Of a DNA stretch of 64,000 bases, positions 492-43,831 are shown piece by piece (the first letter of the stretch is position 1; each line of letters opens with the position of its first letter). The position numbers were made by a program, and so were the translations under genes. The stretch spans positions 90,257 to 154,256 of the forward strand of contig OZ244038.1 of the NCBI GenBank assembly GCA_965215145.1, given 5' to 3'. A model generated the notes under the pieces. That model saw only the letters and a list, made by a program, of their open reading frames with translations, ran no database searches and was not told the origin of the DNA. The stretch comes from Rhodothermales bacterium. Lineage in GTDB: Bacteria > Bacteroidota > Rhodothermia > Rhodothermales > JANQRZ01.

Positions 492-734
492 ATGAACACG
501 CTCGTCCAGAAGTGGGGCAACAGCCTCGCCATCCGGCTCCCGAAGGCTCTGGCGAGCGAGGCCCGCATCTGTCAGGGGTCGCTCGTCGATCTAAGCCTGG
601 AGGACGGCGCGCTGCGCATCCAACTCGTTTCCCCACCGGAGCTCACCCTCGATGCCCTACTCGCTGGAGTGACGGAGGAAAACCTGCATGAGGCCATCGA
701 CGCGACCGACGGGGTCGGGGCTGAGGTTCTGTGA
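492..734 (+). CDS. mazE: type II antitoxin MazE (AbrB/SpoVT fold)
   Basis: 80 aa. VQKWGNSLAIRLPK swapped-hairpin motif; the C-terminal VTEENLHEAID parallels E. coli MazE ITPENLHENID. 4-nt GTGA overlap with the next gene. Confidence 0.85.
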   Translation: MNTLVQKWGNSLAIRLPKALASEARICQGSLVDLSLEDGALRIQLVSPPELTLDALLAGVTEENLHEAIDATDGVGAEVL

Positions 735-1066
735 GCAGCTACGTGCCCCGCCGGGGCGATGCCGTCTGGCTCGACTTCAACCCTCAGACCGGACGCGAGC
801 AGGCCGGGCGGCGTCCGGCGTTCGTCGTCTCGCCCGTCTCCTACAACCGGAAGGTCGGCCTGTTCGTCGTCTGCCCGATCACGACGAAGCAGAAGGGGTA
901 CCCGTTCGAGGTGGAGATCCCGAGCGGCCACAAGGCGAGGGGCGTGATCCTGTCCGATCAGATCAAGAGCCTGGACTGGCGGGCGCGTAACGCCGCCCTG
1001 CTCTGCCCCCTGCCGGAGGCTGTGACGCAGGAGGTTCTTCAAAAGGTGAACGCCCTTCTGAAGTGA
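731..1066 (+). CDS. mazF: type II toxin MazF/PemK endoribonuclease
   Basis: 111 aa from GTG 731. YVPRRGDAVWLDFNPQTGREQAGRRPAFVVSP...TTKQKGYPFEV...DQIKSLDWRAR closely tracks E. coli MazF (YVPDMGDLIWVDFDPTKGSEQAGHRPAVVLSP...). Confidence 0.9.
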   Translation: MSSYVPRRGDAVWLDFNPQTGREQAGRRPAFVVSPVSYNRKVGLFVVCPITTKQKGYPFEVEIPSGHKARGVILSDQIKSLDWRARNAALLCPLPEAVTQEVLQKVNALLK

Positions 1067-1078
1067 CGCCGAGGAATA

Positions 1079-1288
1079 GGGACACCCCCCGTTCCCCGTC
1101 CCATCGCGGAGCCTGTGCTGAGCGCAGCCGAAGTGCTCAGGGGACGAGAAGCTGTCCCCCTTCCGAAGCTGCAAGTCCCGCCCTGCGGGGGGGGACAGTT
1201 TTGGGCGTGCCTGAGGGCGCAGGGACTCGTCCCGTAGCCCGATGCTGCAAGTCCCGCTCTGCGGGGCATGCCCGAAACGGGCGGTCCC
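1079..1288. repeat. modular hairpin element, copy A (left arm of an inverted pair around 1341-2894)
   Basis: The reverse complement aligns by eye along nearly its whole length with 2896-3092. One 64-bp stretch has a single mismatch, and one approximately 15-19-bp segment (ACGGGACGAGTCCCTGCGC vs CCGT) is present only here. The ends are GACACCCCCCG ... CGGGCGGTCCC. Internal hairpins include CTGTCCCCCTT..GGGGGACAG and GGGACTCGTCCC. Confidence 0.85.
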
Positions 1289-1340
1289 GTCGTAGCTTCG
1301 CCGCTAACCTCTGCTCCCGCCTCCATTACCGAGTCCTGCC

Positions 1341-2894
1341 ATGCGTTTCCTGCTCGCGGCCCTCACCCTGACGCTGGCCCTCGGGGCCAACGCGCAGAAC
1401 ACGTTCATCGAGGAGGCCGCCGTCACGAGCGGCGACTTCTCCAACGAGATCGGGGAAGCCTTCCCGATCCACATCACCGGCTCGGTAGCCGACACTACCG
1501 TGATCACCGGTAACACCATCGGCACTACTGATGTCGAGGTGTTCCGCTTCACCTGCGACATCGCGCTCGCACCTGAAGTCATCCTCGACATCCTCCACGT
1601 CAATGTGGAGGGCTTGACCTTCGACAGCGAGCTGGCGCTCGTCGTGGACGGAGAGTTCCCAGAGCGCGGTCTGGAGTTGCCGGCGGGAGGTGGATCAGGC
1701 TTCTACAGCCGAGTTCACCTGCCGTGTGGGCCGGGCGATGAGCTGATTGTGGCCTTCGGGCCGCGTGATCTCTCCTACCACACCGATCCTGACCGGGTCG
1801 AGTCTAGCGGTGCCTTCGGGTTTCCGGATCGAGACTACACTCTCTCGATCGTGCCACGCATGGACGAGCGTCACTACGTCGGTACGCAGGAGGAGAGCTT
1901 CACCATCTCCATGGCCGAAGACATCGGTGACATCACGTCGATCGACTTCTACTCGGTGTACATGCAATGGCACGAGGTGGAGCGCAAAATCATCCGCTTC
2001 ACCGTGCCAGACGAAGCTGCGGACACCTTCTCCATCAACGGCGACTGCAACACTCCAGCCTTCGCCTGGCTCATCGCGAGTGATGGTGAAGTGTTAGAGG
2101 TGCGACAAGGTGATTGGGATCAAACGGACCCGCGCGCAAGTGACTGGTGCCCTATCTTTGAAGCCGGAGTTCTGGCAGAAGAGGGTGGAGGTGACTATTA
2201 CCTTGCCTTCGGCATGGCCTCAGCGGGCTACGAAGATGGCGAACTCTGGAGTAATCCCGGACTGAGTTTCTACAACGTCCGGGCGGGAACAGTAGCGTGG
2301 CGCTTCGGTCACGCTCGCGCCGACATCACTGCGCTCACCGCCGATCAGCGTGACAACTCGTTCGCGCTGGGCTTCCAGCTCGCGGGCGACCAGCTCACCC
2401 AGGTGCGCTCGACCCTCACGGTGGACGGCGAGACGGTGCTCGATGAAACCCAGCTCACCGACTGGACCCTCGCCGCACCCCAGCCCTTCGAGGTGATCGC
2501 CGAGGACGTGCCCTCCGACGAGGAGGCCGAGTTCTGCGTCCAGGTCTACGGCCGCGGCAACTGGAGCGAGGCCGATCCCGTCGGCGAGCCGGAGTGCCTC
2601 ACCTTCCTCACCACCTCCGCCGAGGACGGCCCGGACGCCGAGGCGCTGTCGCTGAGCGTCCGCCCGAACCCGGCGCGGGGGGCGGCCGAGGTCGCCTTCC
2701 GGCTGGCGCGGCCTGGCCCCGCCGAGGTGGCGGTGTTCGACGTGCTGGGGCGGCGGGTGGCGGTGCTGGCGCGCGAGGCGGTCCCGGCGGGGGAGCACAC
2801 CCGGTCGGTGGCGGGGCTGGCGCCGGGGGTCTACGTGGTGCGGCTCACGTCGGGCGGCACGGTGCGGACGCAGCGGCTGACGGTGGTGCGGTAG
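1341..2894 (+). CDS. secreted protein of unknown function with T9SS (Por) C-terminal sorting domain
   Basis: 517 aa with signal peptide MRFLLAALTLTLALGANAQ. The last approximately 80 aa (LSVRPNPARGAAEVAFRL...VFDVLGRRVAVL...GVYVVRLTSGGTVRTQRLTVVR) form a typical T9SS CTD. The body has strings such as TDVEVFRFT, SIDFYSVYM and GGDYYLAFG, reminiscent of pre-peptidase C-terminal-like modules. Confidence 0.8.
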   Translation: MRFLLAALTLTLALGANAQNTFIEEAAVTSGDFSNEIGEAFPIHITGSVADTTVITGNTIGTTDVEVFRFTCDIALAPEVILDILHVNVEGLTFDSELALVVDGEFPERGLELPAGGGSGFYSRVHLPCGPGDELIVAFGPRDLSYHTDPDRVESSGAFGFPDRDYTLSIVPRMDERHYVGTQEESFTISMAEDIGDITSIDFYSVYMQWHEVERKIIRFTVPDEAADTFSINGDCNTPAFAWLIASDGEVLEVRQGDWDQTDPRASDWCPIFEAGVLAEEGGGDYYLAFGMASAGYEDGELWSNPGLSFYNVRAGTVAWRFGHARADITALTADQRDNSFALGFQLAGDQLTQVRSTLTVDGETVLDETQLTDWTLAAPQPFEVIAEDVPSDEEAEFCVQVYGRGNWSEADPVGEPECLTFLTTSAEDGPDAEALSLSVRPNPARGAAEVAFRLARPGPAEVAVFDVLGRRVAVLAREAVPAGEHTRSVAGLAPGVYVVRLTSGGTVRTQRLTVVR

Positions 2895-2895
2895 C

Positions 2896-3092
2896 GGACC
2901 CGGACCCCCCGTTTCGGCCGTGCCCCGCAGGGCGGGACTTGCAGCATCGGGCTCCGTCCTCAGGCACGCCCGAAACTGTCTCCCCCCCGCGAGCGGGACT
3001 TGCAGCTTCTGAGGGGGGACAGCTTCTCGTCCCTTGAGCACTTCGGCTGCGCTCAGCACAGGCTCCGCGATGGGACGAGGAGCGGGGGGTGC
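2896..3092. repeat. modular hairpin element, copy B (right arm, inverted relative to copy A)
   Basis: It starts 2 nt after the TAG stop (2892-2894) with GGACCCGGACCCCCCG and ends CGGGGGGTGC. See copy A for the alignment. Confidence 0.85.
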
Positions 3093-3204
3093 GAAACGGA
3101 GACCTGCCACCCCCGACCCCTACTCGGCTCGCAACCTGTGCCTACGTTGTGGGTACATCGCGTGACATCCCACCGGACCTCCTTCCCCCGTCGCCTACAC
3201 CGCC

Positions 3205-3465
3205 GTGAGCAAGACCGCCACGATCTCCGCCCGGATCGACCCCGACACGAAGCGGGCCGCCGAGGCCGTCTTCCGCGACCTCGGCCTCTCCGCCAGCCAG
3301 GCCATCACGCTGTTCTACCGGCAGGTCCAGCTCCGCCACGGCCTCCCCTTCGAGGTGAGGGTGCCGACCGAGAAGACGCGCGAGGCGCTCCGGCAGGCAG
3401 AAGCACGTGAGGACCTCGACAGCTTCGACTCCACCGACGCTCTCTTCGACGACCTCGGCGTGTGA
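3205..3465 (+). CDS. dinJ: type II antitoxin DinJ/RelB family
   Basis: 86 aa from GTG 3205. ISARIDPDTKRAAEAVFRDLGLSASQAITLFYRQV...LPFEV...DALFDDLGV parallels E. coli DinJ (VRARIDEDLKNQAADVLAGMGLTISD...LPFDL...DDLFDKLGI). Confidence 0.85.
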   Translation: MSKTATISARIDPDTKRAAEAVFRDLGLSASQAITLFYRQVQLRHGLPFEVRVPTEKTREALRQAEAREDLDSFDSTDALFDDLGV

Positions 3466-3749
3466 TGGCCCGGCGGGACAGGGTGTTACGTCGGACCTCG
3501 CAGTTCAAGCGCGACGCGAAGCTGGCGAAGCGGCGGGGGAAGAACCTCGGCAAGCTGCGCGAGGTGGTCGAGAAGCTGGCGGCGGGGGAGGTGCTGGAAG
3601 AGCGCTTCCGCGACCATGCGCTCCTCGGCGGATACCGGGGGAGCCGCGAGTGCCACCTCGAACCGGACTGGCTGCTGATCTACGAGGCGACGGCCGAGGA
3701 GGTGGTGCTGATCCGGACGGGGACGCACGCGGACCTGTTCAAGAAGTAG
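3465..3749 (+). CDS. yafQ: type II toxin YafQ (RelE superfamily mRNA interferase)
   Basis: 94 aa from ATG 3465 (TGATG overlap with the dinJ stop; the track starts at GTG 3462). FKRDAKLAKRRGKNLGKL...RDHALLGGYRGSRECHLEPDWLLIY...RTGTHADLF matches the YafQ pattern (YSKDVKLAQKRHKDMNKL...KDHPLQGSWKGYRDAHVEPDWILIY...RTGTHAALF). Confidence 0.85.
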   Translation: MARRDRVLRRTSQFKRDAKLAKRRGKNLGKLREVVEKLAAGEVLEERFRDHALLGGYRGSRECHLEPDWLLIYEATAEEVVLIRTGTHADLFKK

Positions 3750-3756
3750 CCGTGGC

Positions 3757-3893
3757 GGACCCCCCGCTCCTCGTCCCATCGCTCCGCTCAGAGGACGAGA
3801 AGCTGTCCCCCTTCTGAAGGGGGACAGTTTGGGTCGCGCCTGAGGGCGAAGGGACTCGTCCCGGAGCCCGATGCGCGGGATAAACGGGGGGTC
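3757..3893. repeat. modular hairpin element, copy C (shorter version, same orientation as A)
   Basis: It runs GGACCCCCCG ... CGGGGGGTC. It shares with copy A the modules CGTCCCATCGC, GACGAGAAGCTGTCCCCCTTCTGAAGGGGGACAG and CCTGAGGGCG.AGGGACTCGTCCC..AGCCCGATGC, but lacks two internal hairpin modules. It begins 8 nt after the yafQ TAG, and its right end overlaps the stop (3892-3894) of the convergent monooxygenase gene. Confidence 0.8.
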
Positions 3894-5403
3894 ACCCCGC
3901 CGTCTCCAGCCGGACGCCCGTGCGGAGGGCCTGCCGCTTCGGGCGGCGCCGGCCGAGCCGCCGCTCCCGCTCCACCGCCGCCTTGTACGGGTAGAAGTCC
4001 ACCTGCATCGTGTGCCGCTTCGAACGGTAGTAGCGCCGCGCCGTCCGCGCCTCCGCCCGCGCGATGGCCGCCTCCATCTCGGCCGGCTCCGGCAGCCCGG
4101 CCTCGCCCTCCAGCAGATCCGCGATCCACTCCGCCTGCGCCTCGGCCAGCGGCATGATGGCGCCGAGCGGCTGGACGAGTCCGAGGAAGTACAGCCCCGG
4201 CCGGCGGGGCATCACGACGTGCCGGAACAGCCGCACCCGGTTGTCTTCTACCTGCACCACCTCGTCGTCGAGGAACGGGAAGCTCACGTCGTAGCCCGTG
4301 GCGTAGACGATCACGTCCACCCCTTCCTCCGTCCCGTCGGCGAACCAGACGCGGTCACCCAGCAGGCGCTCGATGTTCGGCTTCACGGTGATGGCGCCGT
4401 GGGCGATCCGCCCGAGCAGCTCGTCGGAGATCGTGGGGTGCTCGGCGAGCAGGGGGTGCTCCGGCTCGGGCATCCCGTAGCCCGCCTGCCGGCCACGGCT
4501 GACGAGGAGCACCGCCCGTAGGAGCGCCCTCTGTAGCGGCACCGGGAGCCGCTGCGTCAGCGGCGTGGCGAGATTGTCGGCAGGGAGGCCGAAAAAGAAC
4601 TTCGGGATGACGTGGGCGCCGCGGCGGGTCGAGAGCAGCGTCCGCTCGGCCACGCGCGACGCCTCGACGGCGATGTCGCACGCCGAGTTGCCCGCGCCGA
4701 CGACGAGCACGCGCTTCCCGACGAGCCCCTCCGGCGTCTTGTAGGCGTGCGAGTGCATCGCCTCGCCGTCGAAGTGACCGGGGAAGTCGGGGAGCGACGG
4801 CTTCCAGTGGTGCCCGTTGGCGACGACGACGGCCTCGTAGCGCCGGGTGTCGGTCTCGCCGGTGTCGAGGTGGCGGGTGGTGACGAGGTAGCCGGCGCGC
4901 TCCCCTGTCGGGTCCGCCGGCTCGACGCGCTCGACGCGGGTGCGGAACGTGATCCGGTCGCGGAAGCCGAAGTGGTCCACGTAGTCCTCGAAGTAGGCGA
5001 GGATCTGGCGGTGGCTCGGGTAGTGGGGGTAGTCGGCCGGCATCGGGAAATCCGAATACGCCATCCGGTCCCGGTTCGTGTTGATGTGGAGCGAGCGGTA
5101 GGCCGCCGAGACGCCGTTGTCGTTGAGGTAGCGCCAGTTGCCGCCGATCCCGCTTCCCATCTCGAAGCACTCGAAGGGGATGCCGCGCTCGTGGAACGTC
5201 TTCGCCGCCACGATCCCCGACGAGCCGGCCCCGACGATGCAAACGCCGCCCCGGCCGGGCGCCCCGTCGCCGCCGATCTCGGGCCGGGGCGGGGTGACGG
5301 GTACTTCCGGCCGCCGGGGGCGGAGGCGCGTCCCACTCCGCCGTACCGCACCGTTCGTGGGTGCGGCAGAATCCGTCGGGTCGAGCCGGAGGTCGTCGGG
5401 CAT
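3892..5403 (-). CDS. class B flavin-containing monooxygenase (FMO/Baeyer-Villiger type)
   Basis: Up to 503 aa. IVGAGSSGIVAA (FAD), FPGHFDGEAMHSHAYK (FMO-identifying-like), VVGAGNSACDIA (NADPH). The first approximately 55 aa are low complexity, so the true start is uncertain. Confidence 0.8.
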   Translation of the reverse strand: MPDDLRLDPTDSAAPTNGAVRRSGTRLRPRRPEVPVTPPRPEIGGDGAPGRGGVCIVGAGSSGIVAAKTFHERGIPFECFEMGSGIGGNWRYLNDNGVSAAYRSLHINTNRDRMAYSDFPMPADYPHYPSHRQILAYFEDYVDHFGFRDRITFRTRVERVEPADPTGERAGYLVTTRHLDTGETDTRRYEAVVVANGHHWKPSLPDFPGHFDGEAMHSHAYKTPEGLVGKRVLVVGAGNSACDIAVEASRVAERTLLSTRRGAHVIPKFFFGLPADNLATPLTQRLPVPLQRALLRAVLLVSRGRQAGYGMPEPEHPLLAEHPTISDELLGRIAHGAITVKPNIERLLGDRVWFADGTEEGVDVIVYATGYDVSFPFLDDEVVQVEDNRVRLFRHVVMPRRPGLYFLGLVQPLGAIMPLAEAQAEWIADLLEGEAGLPEPAEMEAAIARAEARTARRYYRSKRHTMQVDFYPYKAAVERERRLGRRRPKRQALRTGVRLETAG

Positions 5404-30710: not shown

Positions 30711-31639
30711 CCGACCGCCCTGCCCTCTTCGACCAGCTCCAGGCCCTCACCACCGAGCAGCGCAACCCCCGCTCGATGCGGATCGACGCCGCCTCGACCG
30801 AGGAGATCCTCCGGATCATCAACGACGAGGACGCCCGCGTCGCCCCCGCCGTGCGGGACCAGCTCCCCTACATGGCCGAGGCCGTGGAAACCGTGGTGGA
30901 CGCCTTCAAGCGGGGCGGGCGGCTGTTCTACGCCGGGGCCGGGACGAGCGGGCGCCTCGGCATCCTCGACGCCGCCGAGTGCCCGCCGACGTTCGGGACG
31001 CCGCCGGAGCTGGTGCAGGGGCTGATCGCCGGCGGCAAGCCCGCGGTCTTCCAGGCGCAGGAGGGCGCCGAGGACCACGAGGAGAATGGGGTCGCCGCGC
31101 TGGAGGAAGCGGGGGTGACTCCGGAGGATGTCGTCTGTGGCATTGCAGCGAGCCGACGGACGCCGTTCGTGGTCGGCGCCGTCAAGCACGCCAAGACCCT
31201 CGGTTGCCCGACGCTGTTCGTGACGTGCAACCCCCGCGAGCAGTTCGACCTCCACGAATGGGTGGACACGGCGATCTGCGTGGCCGTCGGGCCGGAGGTC
31301 ATCATGGGGTCCACGCGGATGAAGAGCGGGACGGCGCAGAAGCTCGTCCTCAACATGCTCACGACCGCGGCGATGGTGCGGATGGGGAAGGTCTACGAGA
31401 ACATGATGATCGACCTCCAGATGACCAACCAGAAACTCGTCGAGCGCTCGAAGCGGATCGTGATGACGGTCACGGGGCTGGACTACGAGGAGGCGGCGCG
31501 GGTGCTGGAGGCGGCCGGCGGCCACGTCAAGACCGCCCTCGTGATGACCCTCGCCGAGGTCGACGCCGACGCGGCGCGGGTCCGGCTGGAGCGCGCCGGC
31601 GGGTTCGTCCGGCAGGCCATCGCGGGAGAAGGCACATAG
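30707..31639 (+). CDS. murQ: N-acetylmuramic acid 6-phosphate etherase
   Basis: 310 aa from GTG 30707 (GTGA overlap with the CHAT gene stop; the track buries it in ORF 29141-31639). LTTEQRNPRS, FYAGAGTSGRLG (SIS), GSTRMKSGTAQK. Confidence 0.9.
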   Translation: MTDRPALFDQLQALTTEQRNPRSMRIDAASTEEILRIINDEDARVAPAVRDQLPYMAEAVETVVDAFKRGGRLFYAGAGTSGRLGILDAAECPPTFGTPPELVQGLIAGGKPAVFQAQEGAEDHEENGVAALEEAGVTPEDVVCGIAASRRTPFVVGAVKHAKTLGCPTLFVTCNPREQFDLHEWVDTAICVAVGPEVIMGSTRMKSGTAQKLVLNMLTTAAMVRMGKVYENMMIDLQMTNQKLVERSKRIVMTVTGLDYEEAARVLEAAGGHVKTALVMTLAEVDADAARVRLERAGGFVRQAIAGEGT

Positions 31640-31640
31640 C

Positions 31641-31758
31641 GGACCCCCCGTTTTTCTTGCGTCGCCTTCGGCTCCGGCTGCGAAAAACCGTCCCCCTTAA
31701 CAAGGGGGACAGCTCGTCCGGCCTTGAGCGCAGCGATGGCCGGACGAGCGGGGGGTCC
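31641..31758. repeat. modular hairpin element, copy D
   Basis: Starts 2 nt after the murQ TAG. Terminal inverted repeats GGACCCCCCG (31641-31650) and CGGGGGGTCC (31749-31758). Internal hairpins GTTTTTC..GAAAAAC, GTCCCCCTTAACAAGGGGGAC and CTCGTCCGGCC..GGCCGGACGAG. Confidence 0.75.
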
Positions 31759-31760
31759 CC

Positions 31761-31776
31761 GGTTTCACGTGAAGCC
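31761..31776. promoter_or_regulatory. weak parS-like sequence
   Basis: GGTTTCACGTGAAGCC matches TGTTTCACGTGAAACA at 13 of 16 positions. It directly abuts element D. Confidence 0.2.
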
Positions 31777-31838
31777 CCCGGACCCGGCGGCGGGCCGAGC
31801 CGTTTGCGCTCTCCCCTCTCCCCGTCTCGATCTCCTCC

Positions 31839-41693: not shown

Positions 41694-41735
41694 GGCGAGA
41701 GAGGGTTGGTGTGCGGGGCGGGGCGCTCAGACCCT

Positions 41736-41871
41736 CCCCCTCCCCAGACGAGGAGGGGGTGTCCGAAGGACGGGGGTGGTTGGCCGGAGCCACGAAGCGG
41801 GTCTACCCAACCACCCCGCTCGCTCAGGGACGAGTCCCTGAGCGAGTTGCCCCTCCTTCGGCAAGGAGGGG
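41736..41871. repeat. array of four consecutive GC-rich hairpins
   Basis: 41736-41759 (CCCCCTCC/GGAGGGGG). 41774-41816 (GGGTGGTTGG/CCAACCACCC). 41819-41846 (perfect 12-bp CTCGCTCAGGGA/TCCCTGAGCGAG, loop CGAG). 41850-41871 (CCCCTCCTT/AAGGAGGGG, loop CGGC). Confidence 0.75.
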
Positions 41872-41994
41872 CGGGCCAGCATCGCTCTTCAAGACGCTAC
41901 GGACGCGGCGGCGTAACCCCGCAGCCGAAAAGGAACAGCCCCCGGCGCCTCGCGTGCCAGCCGGCCCCTCTTTCGACGCCTGCCCCCCGCCGCG

Positions 41995-43512
41995 ATGCCC
42001 GACCTCACCGACCTCACGACCCTCGGCGCGCTGAAGCAGGCCGGCTACCGGCCCCGGCCCGTCAAGGACGAGGTCCGCGAGAACCTGATCCGCAAGCTCC
42101 GCGCGGGCGAGGACGTCTTCCCCGGCATCCTCGGCTTCGACCGGACGGTGACCCCACACGTCCAGAACGCGCTGCTCGCCCGGCACGACCTGATCCTGCT
42201 CGGCCTCCGGGGGCAGGCCAAGAGCCGCATCGTCCGGATGCTCCCGACGCTGCTCGACGAGCACCTCCCCGTCGTCGCCGGGTCTGAGGTCCACGACGAC
42301 CCCTTCGCGCCGGTCTCGAAGATGGCCCGCGACCTCGTGGCCGAGCGCGGCGACGAGACCCCCATCGAGTGGGTCGGCCGGGAGGCCCGCTACGGCGAGA
42401 AGCTCGCCACGCCCGACACCTCCGTGGCCGACCTCATCGGGGACATCGACCCCATCAAGGCCGCCACGCGCAAGCTGACCTACGCCGACGAGGAGGTGAT
42501 CCACTTCGGCATCATCCCCCGGACCAACCGCGGCATCTTCGCCATCAACGAGCTGCCGGACCTCCAGCCGCGCATCCAGGTCGGGCTGCTGAACGTGATG
42601 GAGGAGCAGGACATCCAGATCCGCGGCTTCAACGTCCGCATCCCGCTGGACCTGCTGATGGTGTTCACGGCCAACCCCGAGGACTACACCAACCGCGGCT
42701 CGATCATCACCCCGCTGAAGGACCGGATCGACAGCCAGATCATCACCCACTACCCGCGCTCGCTGGAGATCGGCGTGGAGATCACGCGGCAGGAGGCGTG
42801 GCAGGAGCGCGACGGCGCCGCGGCCGTCCACCTCCCCCACGTCTTCCGGGAGGTCGTGGAGCAGGTGGCCTTCGAGGCGCGCGAGAGCGAGTACGTGGAC
42901 CAGAAGTCCGGCGTCTCGGCGCGGCTGACGCGGGCGGCGCTGGAGGCGCTCGTCTCGGCCGCCGAGCGGCGGGCGCTCCTCAACGGCGAGCCCGAGACGA
43001 CCGTCCGGGTCACCGACCTCCAGGCCGTCGAGCCGGCGGTGACGGGGAAGGTGGAGCTGGTCTACGAGGGCGAGCAGGAGGGCGCCCAGGGCGTGGCCCA
43101 CCTCCTCATCGGCCGCGCCCTCGGGGCGACGTTCAAGCGCTACTTCCCCGACCCCACCGACAAGGAGAAGGGCCGGGAGGCCTATCAGAAGGTCCTCGGG
43201 TGGTTCTCGAAGGGGAACGCCCTCGACCTCGACGCGGGGATGGCGTTCGACGCCTACGCGAAGGCGCTCGACCGGGTGGACGGGCTCCGCGAGGTCGTCG
43301 CCCAGCACACGAGCCCGGCGACGCCAGCCGAGGCGGCGAGCATGATGGAGCTCGTCGTCGAGGGGCTCCACCAGCACTCCCTCGTGGGGAAAGACCGCGT
43401 GGCCGGCGAGCTCCAGTACACCGACATCATGGGCAGCGTGCTCGGCTCCATCGGCCGGATCGAGGACGACGACGAGGACTGGGAGGACTTCCGCCGCCGC
43501 TACGGTGGCTGA
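41995..43512 (+). CDS. ChlI/MoxR-like AAA+ ATPase
   Basis: 505 aa. LILLGLRGQAKSR, GIFAINELPDLQPRIQVGLLNVMEE, MVFTANPEDY. Often annotated as magnesium-chelatase-like or sigma-54-interaction-domain ATPase. Confidence 0.7.
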   Translation: MPDLTDLTTLGALKQAGYRPRPVKDEVRENLIRKLRAGEDVFPGILGFDRTVTPHVQNALLARHDLILLGLRGQAKSRIVRMLPTLLDEHLPVVAGSEVHDDPFAPVSKMARDLVAERGDETPIEWVGREARYGEKLATPDTSVADLIGDIDPIKAATRKLTYADEEVIHFGIIPRTNRGIFAINELPDLQPRIQVGLLNVMEEQDIQIRGFNVRIPLDLLMVFTANPEDYTNRGSIITPLKDRIDSQIITHYPRSLEIGVEITRQEAWQERDGAAAVHLPHVFREVVEQVAFEARESEYVDQKSGVSARLTRAALEALVSAAERRALLNGEPETTVRVTDLQAVEPAVTGKVELVYEGEQEGAQGVAHLLIGRALGATFKRYFPDPTDKEKGREAYQKVLGWFSKGNALDLDAGMAFDAYAKALDRVDGLREVVAQHTSPATPAEAASMMELVVEGLHQHSLVGKDRVAGELQYTDIMGSVLGSIGRIEDDDEDWEDFRRRYGG

Positions 43513-43517
43513 GGGCG
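43496..43517. repeat. direct repeat, left copy (contains the ATPase stop codon)
   Basis: GCCGCTACGGTGGCTGAGGGCG. 17 of 22 positions are identical to 44316-44337. Confidence 0.7.
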
Positions 43518-43546
43518 TTAAATTGCGACAACCAGACTCAGGAGAC

Positions 43547-43831
43547 ATGGTCGACGTAAAGCAGGCGGTGCAAGCCGCTACCAGCTATTTCGAAGATTTA
43601 TACTCTCAGGAACTGGCGAGTTGGTTGCGTCTCGAAGAGGTGAAGCTCTCGGAGGACGAGAGCCAATGGCAGATTACGTTGAGCTTCGTTGACGAATCTG
43701 AGTCTCACCCGCTTAGTCCCGTCCTGGGTTCGGCACCACGGCATTATAAGATTTTTGAAATCGATGCAGACTCGGGGAAGGTCAGGTCTATGTTAATCCG
43801 CAAAATCAATGACACGTCGGTATCTCAATGA
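43547..43831 (+). CDS. small hypothetical protein (candidate partner of the PIN-like protein)
   Basis: 94 aa from ATG 43547 (the track start GTG 43505 lies inside the direct repeat). No RHH, AbrB or HTH signature seen. Overlaps the next gene by 23 nt. Confidence 0.5.
   Translation: MVDVKQAVQAATSYFEDLYSQELASWLRLEEVKLSEDESQWQITLSFVDESESHPLSPVLGSAPRHYKIFEIDADSGKVRSMLIRKINDTSVSQ

Follow-up and report, generated by a model that had tools for sequence, protein, structure and literature searches.

A probable REP/REPIN-like family of nested palindromic repeats in a Rhodothermales genome

The locus and its repeats

The subject of this account is a family of palindromic repeats in a 64,000-nucleotide (64-kb) stretch of the Rhodothermales bacterium assembly GCA_965215145.1 (contig OZ244038.1, positions 90,257 to 154,256), referred to here as the window, which has a G+C content of 71% and a murQ gene 83–85% identical to that of Rhodothermales metagenome-assembled genomes (MAGs). 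Four copies, A to D, lie close to the stop codons of a PemK/MazF toxin gene, a secreted-protein gene with a type IX secretion system (T9SS) C-terminal tail, a YafQ-like toxin gene and murQ, respectively, while a divergent relative, E, sits between divergently transcribed genes (Table 1). Together the copies probably represent a non-autonomous palindromic repeat family of Rhodothermales that resembles repetitive extragenic palindromes (REPs) and their paired form, the REP doublets forming hairpins (REPINs).

The original prediction, made from the sequence alone, took A to D for members of one non-coding palindromic repeat family, and this is confirmed. Seven family members were used to build a covariance model, and its unfiltered run over all 64 kb gave the four copies 42–127.7 bits; the next match was E (E-value 0.003), and all remaining matches scored at most 17 bits. 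E and the copies in related genomes extend the family beyond four. Internal motifs occur in the window far above chance, with six occurrences of CTGTCCCCCTT against 0.97 expected and four of GCGGGACTTGCAG against 0.19. The shared ends that had been proposed exist as short inverted termini of 8–10 bp, reading GGACCCCCCG ... CGGGGGGTCC and consisting of ACCCCCCG/CGGGGGGT plus one or two bases, but the bare 10-mer terminus, with one mismatch allowed, shows no enrichment in the window by itself (23 occurrences, 27 expected). The left end of B has a short duplication, GGACCC-GGACCCCCCG. Element E is built from the hairpins CTCGCTCAGGGAC-GA-GTCCCTGAGCGAG and GCCCCTCCTT-CGGC-AAGGAGGGGC and carries a CCCCTCCTT...AAGGAGGGG hairpin variant also present in other phyla. 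A scan of the whole window with Rfam 15 at gathering scores gave no match, a search of positions 1000–4000 with Rfam at E-values up to 10 gave a chance miRNA as its sole match, and a tRNA and tmRNA search found none.

Table 1. Positions of the repeat copies, their modules and selected genes (window numbering; L labels denote loci from other genomes, retrieved by hairpin or gene searches)
Feature	Position	Strand	Remarks	Score
Copy A	1080-1288	.	basic four-way unit, three nested inserts and GGGACTCGTCCC mini-hairpin	42 bits
Copy B	2896-3092	.	inverted copy of A without the 15-nt GGGACTCGTCCC hairpin	59 bits
Copy C	3757-3894	.	basic four-way unit and GGGACTCGTCCC mini-hairpin	102 bits, z -4.7
Copy D	31641-31758	.	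simplest: outer stem, hairpin 1, central hairpin, hairpin 3	127.7 bits
Element E	41809-41913	.	divergent relative	24.7 bits
Module GCGGGACTTGCAG	1169-1181	-	in A; about 22 nt including a small CCCGC/GCGGG hairpin; also at 1245-1257 (A), 2932-2944 and 2993-3005 (B)	
Mini-hairpin GGGAC-TC-GTCCC	1222-1233	.	in A; also at 3851-3862 (C) and in a related genome (L024:3051)	
Intact central hairpin of C	3803-3827	.	CTGTCCCCCTT-CTG-AAGGGGGACAG	
Central hairpin of D	31690-31710			
Conserved loop TGAGCGCAGCGATG of hairpin 3 in D	31725-31738	+	GCGnAGC mini-hairpin between GA/GA; loop also at 3777-3790 (C, minus strand)	
MazE / PemK-MazF toxin-antitoxin pair	492-1066	+	immediately upstream of A	
T9SS C-terminal sorting-domain secreted-protein gene	1341-2894	+	between inverted A and B	
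RelB / YafQ toxin-antitoxin pair	3205-3749	+	between B and C	
DUF559 genes	L032:7333-7713, L076:4-348, L077:1013-1336, L093:7088-7483		also L129-L133, L137, L138	

Fold and covariation

Each copy reads as a near-palindrome that forms a four-way junction whichever strand is taken. The junction is closed by the invariant outer stem ACCCCCCG/CGGGGGGT and bears three hairpins: hairpin 1, in which the stem varies and the loop reads TCGCnGCGCTC; the central hairpin, CTGTCCCCCTT-nnn-AAGGGGGACAG, i.e., (C)TGTCCCCCTT-nnn-AAGGGGGACA(G), with a stem of 9–11 bp and a 3-nt loop; and hairpin 3, with a variable stem and the loop GAGCGnAGCGA, inside which lies a GCGnAGC trinucleotide-loop mini-hairpin. The stems of the two side hairpins measure 7–12 bp, and their loops are mirror images, so that the whole element is nearly two-fold symmetric and the 3′ hairpin has GCGnAGC on whichever strand is read. 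GCGnAGC is the exceptionally stable trinucleotide-loop DNA mini-hairpin reported by Hirao and colleagues. Compared with shuffled controls, the fold of D has a z-score of −7.3 as RNA (both strands) and −7.1 with DNA parameters, and that of C −4.7 and −4.8, respectively.

Covariation was assessed in an alignment of seven copies from at least five genomes (D, C, L013, L121, L083, L024 and L004). Paired cells amounted to 92.9% compared with 82.7% in shuffled alignments, none of 500 of which reached as high, and the covariation score was 0.333, compared with 0.144 in shuffles and at most 0.10 in slid controls. Compensatory double changes were found in 14 of 19 side-stem pairs; the side stems differ in sequence between copies yet still pair, while no variation is seen in the outer stem or in either loop.

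Growth by nesting

The copies differ by whole small hairpins of 15–25 nt, gained or lost at loop tips. Three insert sites are seen, namely the central triloop (A and B), the n position of GAGCGnAGCGA (A and B, and also L004, L024 and L083 in other genomes) and the tip of a GGGC...GCCC sub-hairpin (A and C). At the first of these, the central hairpin of A (1152–1199) and of B (2976–3022) is split at its loop by module GCGGGACTTGCAG, which each of the two copies carries twice, as had been noted before, and which is confined to them in all sequence examined. The mini-hairpin GGGAC-TC-GTCCC is missing from B and D as a clean 15–16 nt indel. The idea of a common toolbox of internal modules is thus sound as regards nested hairpins that come and go, but not as regards general sharing, as within the family's four window copies the last-named mini-hairpin belongs to A and C only and the GCGGGACTTGCAG module to A and B only.

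A and B are reverse complements of one another, 92% identical, and form an inverted pair around the T9SS-tail gene. C shows 92% identity to A over common columns and lacks three inserts of A (about 24, 22 and 22 nt), so that the description of C as A minus two modules had to be revised. D is best aligned to C reversed (85%), and the difference is again the GGGAC-TC-GTCCC mini-hairpin; the orientation of D means little because the element is nearly two-fold symmetric. As A and B have all three derived inserts in common, the composite must have been copied as a unit after nesting had taken place.

Position relative to genes and stop codons

In keeping with the claim that copies sit directly against stop codons, B starts 1 nt after the TAG (2892–2894) of the T9SS-tail gene, D 1 nt after the murQ TAG (31637–31639) and C 7 nt after the TAG (3747–3749) of the YafQ-like toxin gene. 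C fills the spacer between this toxin gene and a convergent FMO-like gene, which is a real gene (Pfam FMO-like, E 6e-93), and the last bases of C, TC(A) at 3892–3894, form the minus-strand TGA stop of that gene, the overlap that had been noted for the right end of this copy. A starts right after a non-coding TAG (1077–1079; ATAG at 1076–1079), 13 nt past the TGA of the PemK/MazF gene, and downstream of it lies a TAnnTTTG-like −7 box (gTAGCTTCG, at about 1293–1301) of the T9SS-tail gene. The anticipated placement near gene 3′ ends therefore holds for all four window copies, which lie at most 13 nt from a stop, and for 8 of 11 copies in related genomes, whose distance to a gene 3′ end is 46 nt or less; the L024 copy likewise overlaps a stop. 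Since E occupies a divergent promoter region, away from any stop codon, and the L004 copy a 5′ or divergent region, the stop-codon rule is a tendency and not a law.

In A, B, D, L083 and L004 a (G/A)TAG stands at a distance of 0–1 nt from the outer stem. TAG serves as the stop of 27% of window genes and of all three genes abutted by copies, a contrast that is no more than suggestive of a TAG preference. The longer string TAGC, considered as a target, is present at B, C and D; it was set aside because too few sites are available and because most TAG stops in the window (6 of 11) have this context anyway.

It had further been supposed that the elements may create gene 3′ ends. What remains of this is the overlap of 2–3 nt with one stop, at C; both the T9SS-tail gene and murQ keep native stops. 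For the former, the match to Por_Secre_tail is complete to profile position 74 of 75, and the murQ TAG stands at the same position, with no element present, in three of five relatives (L120, L123, L124). For the FMO-like gene, the closest homologue is 65% identical and the C-terminal tails vary, which gives no evidence either way on truncation by C, and its C-terminus falls inside the variable range of the homologues. With the T9SS tail and MurQ complete and the FMO-like C-terminus in the variable range, the genes appear to have been abutted and not remodelled. A second role as terminators, also suggested earlier, finds no support: an intrinsic terminator requires a G+C-rich hairpin followed by a T-run, no T-tract follows A, B or C and none of them gave a match, and the two terminator matches in D rely on an internal T-run of hairpin 1.

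Insertion at the murQ-mfd spacer

Mobility is indicated by the spacer that holds D. In five relatives (L119, L120, L123, L124 and L125), with murQ genes 83–85% identical to that of the window, murQ is followed by mfd after 46–95 nt and no element is present. The sequence to the right of D, CCGGTTTCACGTGAA, is kept in three of these (L120, L123 and L124), a few bases past the same TAG. Absent from five orthologous spacers, D is an insertion, or else it was cleanly lost in all five; the claim that the family is mobile is upheld for at least this copy. The covariance model found no copy in 83 kb from the murQ-mfd relatives, one genome of which has copies elsewhere (L004 and L024). No target-site duplication was found at the flanks of A to D, nor on comparing filled and empty murQ-mfd sites.

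Two further features of these sites may be recorded. Just past murQ stands a palindrome, CCGGTTTCACGTGAA(A/G)CC, at 31759–31780 of the window and at L120:3945–3965, with equivalents in L123 and L124; it may be a native terminator or protein-binding site, and D is inserted immediately 5′ of it. At L004:4245–4585, in a related MAG, a near-duplicate promoter-like box (GTAGCTT...) and a signal-peptide start lie on each side of the element; it looks as if either some 60 nt of target were duplicated or the element was inserted between paralogous gene starts.

Related hairpins in other genomes

The core motifs of the window family were found in at least 10 phyla. A scan of one genome per species with the bare hairpin GTCCCCCTTnnnAAGGGGGAC returned at least 118 loci, where approximately 9–25 chance matches were estimated, and annotation assigned them to Cyanobacteria, Chloroflexi, Armatimonadota, Planctomycetes, Bacteroidota, Ignavibacteria, Chlorobiaceae, Acidobacteriota, Patescibacteria (candidate phyla radiation), Nitrospinota and others. 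ACCCCCT/AGGGGGT occurs within 90 nt at 77 of the 118 listed loci, a 40-fold enrichment. Six copies from Chloroflexi and Gloeobacterales MAGs are perfect 41-nt hairpins of the form ACCCCCT-rtrG-TCCCCCTT-nnn-AAGGGGGA-CyayAGGGGGT, and eight loci (L021, L033, L044, L049, L067, L075, L089 and L122) show the window architecture of outer stem and side hairpins, several of them with GAGCGnAGCGA-type loops. A metagenome scan with the extended central hairpin returned two loci only, and a viral scan three matches only among 2.9 million contigs, so that phage carriage looks unimportant. When all open reading frames (ORFs) of the 118 listed loci were clustered in search of a common transposase, the large clusters held only response regulators and housekeeping families; a small cluster of DUF559 genes emerged on closer reading.

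In Chloroflexi MAGs (L009:960–1060 and L118:800–900) the 41-nt C5/G5 hairpin lies between inverted GTAGGGGCGAAGCATC... arms, an arrangement that is a canonical GTAG-type REP dimer centred on the hairpin.

Comparison with known repeats

Known REP systems were compared after Nunvar 2010, Bertels and Rainey 2011, Di Nocera 2013 (PMC3733652) and Quentin 2018 (PMC6006769). Most GTAG REPs are located between ORFs that run in one direction or converge, at a distance below 20 bp from 3′ ends; their termini "often provide the stop codon (TAG)", and they form inverted dimers, some families having self-complementary nested loops (PMC3733652). REP-associated tyrosine transposase (RAYT) subclasses with "double foot" or atypical REPs are known from Bacteroidetes, Cyanobacteria and scattered phyla (PMC6006769). 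The window family has much in common with these systems: the copies are short, G+C-rich extragenic palindromes with no coding capacity, organised as inverted pairs that fold into something larger; they show compensatory stem variation and palindromes nested in loops; and they lie at most about 20 bp from ORF 3′ ends, with termini that supply or abut TAG. The window hairpins fall within the REP definition of a 6–13 bp stem with a short loop, and, except for E and the L004 copy, the elements are extragenic and near ORF 3′ ends. The stop-codon habit is therefore a known REP trait and not new in kind.

The differences are equally plain. The window unit is a closed four-way junction with three hairpins, whereas REPs have one hairpin or fold into one long hairpin; the window family conserves its loops and outer stem, whereas REPs conserve the REP stem; its core motifs are spread over many phyla, whereas a REP family as a rule stays within one species or genus; and no RAYT was found in the 64-kb window. 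A central hairpin with a GT[AG]G "double foot" fits the Chloroflexi and Gloeobacterales copies and approximately 10% of feet overall (23 of 236 among the 118 listed hairpins), but not the window copies. As the MITE (miniature inverted-repeat transposable element) tests failed, and the behaviour is shared with REPs but the design is four-way and the tag loose or absent, the family is best filed as a new variant of the REP/REPIN kind and not as a member of a named family.

Other repeats share single traits with it. Like the bacterial interspersed mosaic elements (BIMEs) of enterobacteria, the window elements are extragenic mosaics that combine a small set of short motifs; unlike BIMEs, which concatenate them side by side, they do so by nesting inside loops, and their sequences are unrelated to the palindromic units of E. 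coli. The boxC repeats of E. coli are likewise C-run/G-run imperfect palindromes with no known transposase. The small dispersed repeats (SDRs) of Nostoc and related cyanobacteria, reported by Elhai and colleagues in 2008 (cited in PMC3733652), are hairpins of approximately 21–27 nt inserted in copies of themselves and in minitransposons; their secondary structure is reportedly backed by compensatory changes, no enzyme for them is reported to have been identified, and they reportedly occur in one cyanobacterial subgroup only. The window family resembles SDRs in that small hairpins are nested within repeat copies, but differs in sequence and in its Rhodothermales host element. Integron attC sites (RYYYAAC ... 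GTTRRRY) were also considered and rejected, as the termini GGACCCCCCG ... CGGGGGGTCC do not fit, no integrase was found in the ten window proteins covered by the Pfam scan, and the scanned neighbours are ordinary genes in mixed orientation (murQ, mfd and toxin-antitoxin pairs). A literature search found no paper linking Rhodothermaceae with REP or MITE elements, and the literal motif sequences matched only unrelated primers and oligonucleotides.

Candidate enzymes

A tblastn search of the window with E. coli RayT, a scan for HUH and Y motifs and Pfam analysis of the ten proteins revealed no RAYT or other Y1 transposase. One RAYT-like Y1 gene was found beside a related hairpin, in a Bacteroidota MAG (L041:3178–3909), where this C5/G5 hairpin lies approximately 30 nt upstream of the gene. 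The HUH and Y motifs of the gene are separated by an insertion of a GTAG...CTAC hairpin and a four-fold tandem repeat, and canonical GTAG REP dimers follow downstream. A REP inside the RAYT gene is the hallmark of subclass 2.4 (PMC6006769), which the L041 gene fits.

The other candidate is DUF559, a Vsr-like domain of the PD-(D/E)xK nuclease fold. Genes for this domain (PF04480, E 1e-28 to 1e-30; 108–132 aa) stand at 4 of the 118 listed hairpin loci, which by annotation belong to a cyanobacterium, Chlorobiaceae, Bacteroidota and Ignavibacteria. In three of the four the gene ends approximately 20 nt or less from the hairpin; in L077 the hairpin lies approximately 190 nt upstream of the gene. 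Starting from the gene, five of five DUF559 homologues chosen blind to their flanks had C-run/G-run triloop hairpins approximately 12–125 nt away, four of them on both sides, and all nine DUF559 loci examined are flanked by such hairpins. The C-terminal tails of 12 of 120 homologues translate such a hairpin according to a pattern search (e.g., RPPVVPLVKGD), or some 20–25% as judged by eye. In L130 the DUF559 gene lies inside an array of repeats, with ACCCCCCTGTGGTCCCCCCTT directly after its TAG stop, and in L138 a C-rich outer stem, a CCCCTCC hairpin and GCGCGAAGCGC upstream of the gene reproduce all three window modules in miniature. The E. coli DUF559 gene ycjD (K-12 region L134:5030–5840) ends in a C-run/G-run imperfect palindrome, and approximately 150 nt downstream of it lies a boxC-like repeat, for which E. 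coli genomes have a median of 16 matching places each; by the boxC consensus and this measured repetitiveness, the repeat is probably boxC. Neither the window nor the Rhodothermales loci examined yielded a DUF559 gene on a tblastn search, nor do they contain a RAYT gene, and a link between DUF559 and the source genome is put forward as a hypothesis.

The array in L130 (600–2100, between trmE and gidA) consists of approximately 10 hairpins in units of some 215 nt (ATCCCCCTTaacAAGGGGGAT ... GAGACCCCCCTGTAG-TCCCCCCTTggtAAGGGGGGAC), the DUF559 gene lying within one of them.

Nature and origin of the repeats

The original prediction spoke of MITE/REP-type elements, of which REP-type has proved the better label. 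A classical MITE would be an internally deleted insertion sequence (IS) of a DDE transposase, moved by cut-and-paste through its terminal inverted repeats. The inverted termini GGACCCCCCG/CGGGGGGTCC, the size of 118–210 bp, the status of D as an insertion relative to related genomes and the composite-like bracketing of a gene by the inverted pair A/B all accord with such an origin, and the window elements share with bacterial MITEs such as Correia/NEMIS, ERIC, RUP and Nezha a length of 100–200 bp, the lack of coding capacity, inverted termini, strong folding and proximity to genes. We nevertheless consider it very improbable, as none of the four copies has a target-site duplication, the termini of 8–10 bp are much shorter than the approximately 15–30 bp expected to match a parent IS, and the interior is nearly all paired with conserved loops, unlike a decayed transposase gene. 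Moreover, no parent IS was seen: no gene bounded by such termini was found in the window or in the 138 loci, and the 118 listed hairpin loci have no shared transposase nearby. Selection as a structured RNA of 3′ untranslated regions (UTRs), acting as terminator, exonuclease barrier or translation brake and not as mobile DNA, would explain the very stable folds, the compensatory changes and the position of most copies downstream of genes, where they would be transcribed. E. coli REPs at most 15 nt from a stop reportedly lower translation of the upstream gene (Liang, Rudd and Deutscher, 2015), and REPs reportedly stabilise upstream mRNA (Newbury and co-workers, 1987). Such an RNA is nonetheless unlikely here. 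Neither strand has the better fold, and copies are found in both orientations; wobble in the seven-copy alignment shows no strand bias (10 G-U and 6 A-C cells); neither an Rfam family nor a T-tract after A, B or C was found; the element is missing from the orthologous spacers of five relatives; and 5′ or divergent regions are where E and the L004 copy are situated.

A different origin would make the hairpins landing pads or flanks of a selfish DUF559 nuclease gene, with gene-less copies as its non-autonomous relatives or targets, in the way that REPs relate to RAYT. The occurrence of the gene at hairpin loci in four different groups, the flanked homologues chosen independently, the hairpin-translating tails, the L130 and L138 arrangements and the palindromic end and downstream repeat of ycjD speak for it. 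On the other side stand the absence of such a gene from the window and from the Rhodothermales loci examined, a hairpin-flanking rate counted without a matched control of other small genes, and the RAYT-like gene of L041, which lies approximately 30 nt from one hairpin, so that hairpin flanking is not unique to DUF559; to our knowledge, no biochemical activity has been reported for this domain. We regard this origin as rather doubtful for the window family. Equally tentative is the broader notion of a cross-phylum superfamily, defined by an outer stem with a C-run, a hairpin of the form C5TT-nnn-AAG5 and hairpins with a GCGnAGC loop, whose partner would be the DUF559 Vsr-like nuclease, including E. 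coli YcjD.

Several observations also weigh against the REP/REPIN-like reading. No cognate enzyme was found in the window, whether by RayT tblastn, HUH/Y scan or DUF559 tblastn. REPs number tens to hundreds per genome, and the count here, four to five, covers 64 kb of the source genome. The feet of the central hairpin read GCTG, ACTG and ACCG and not GT[AG]G, the tetranucleotide that marks canonical REPs 0–2 nt 5′ of the stem and that appears here only loosely outside the outer stem: GTAG at 1 nt in B, 7 nt in C and 0 nt in L083 and on the bottom strand of L004, ATAG at 0–1 nt in A and D, and GCAG at both ends in Rubrivirga copies. The apparent TAG preference, with three of three abutting genes against a usage of 27%, is statistically weak. 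The covariation alignment comprises seven sequences only, five of which were fished with the exact central hairpin, a choice that in part accounts for the lack of variation in it, and templated repair between the arms, as opposed to selection on the fold, could in principle be the source of palindrome upkeep.

Under the REP/REPIN-like reading, the outer stem, central hairpin and loops would be recognition sites for a trans-acting nuclease or transposase, and its substrate would be folded single-stranded or cruciform DNA, in which the side stems need only to pair. Canonical REPs depend on a HUH tyrosine transposase of the RAYT type, and the enzyme here may be one of these or else a Vsr-like nuclease of the DUF559 family. 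Accumulation 3′ of stops might arise because the enzyme prefers a (G/A)TAG-like foot or because other insertions in short spacers break promoters. The elements have diversified by gain and loss of 15–25-nt mini-hairpins at loop tips, and a composite that already held three inserts was copied whole to give A and B. Such stable hairpins probably also affect mRNA 3′ ends, like E. coli REPs, an effect that is predicted only and would be secondary.

Significance

By itself, the family is one more of REP-like kind, and the literature searched describes none in Rhodothermales. Its invariant loops and co-varying stems in a closed four-way junction point to recognition of folded DNA and offer a clean substrate for biochemistry, and the copies display how an element grows, with mini-hairpins nested at loop tips and the whole composite then copied. 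What most merits pursuit is the kinship beyond the window and the association with DUF559. Three motifs that occur in at least 10 phyla and cluster around DUF559 genes provide a testable candidate for the maker or mover of "tagless" REP-like repeats. A DUF559 partner, if true, would amount to a REPtron-like system on a nuclease fold other than HUH/RAYT, would give a function to a widespread domain and would suggest an origin for "orphan" REP-like repeats such as boxC.

Neighbouring features

The stretch from 0.5 to 3.9 kb, with its two toxin-antitoxin pairs and the T9SS-tail gene between A and B, has no flanking duplication. It looks like a variable islet, and the T9SS-tail gene is possibly cargo mobilised between two repeats; the G+C content at third codon positions of this gene is 0.82, at the low end for the window (0.86–0.99 in most other predicted genes). 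The elements also trigger spurious ORF calls and C-terminal extensions, and masking them in annotation is advised. A spurious 574-aa minus-strand ORF (41824–43548) passes through E, and a further C-run/G-run hairpin lies approximately 60 nt upstream of E, at 41733–41760.

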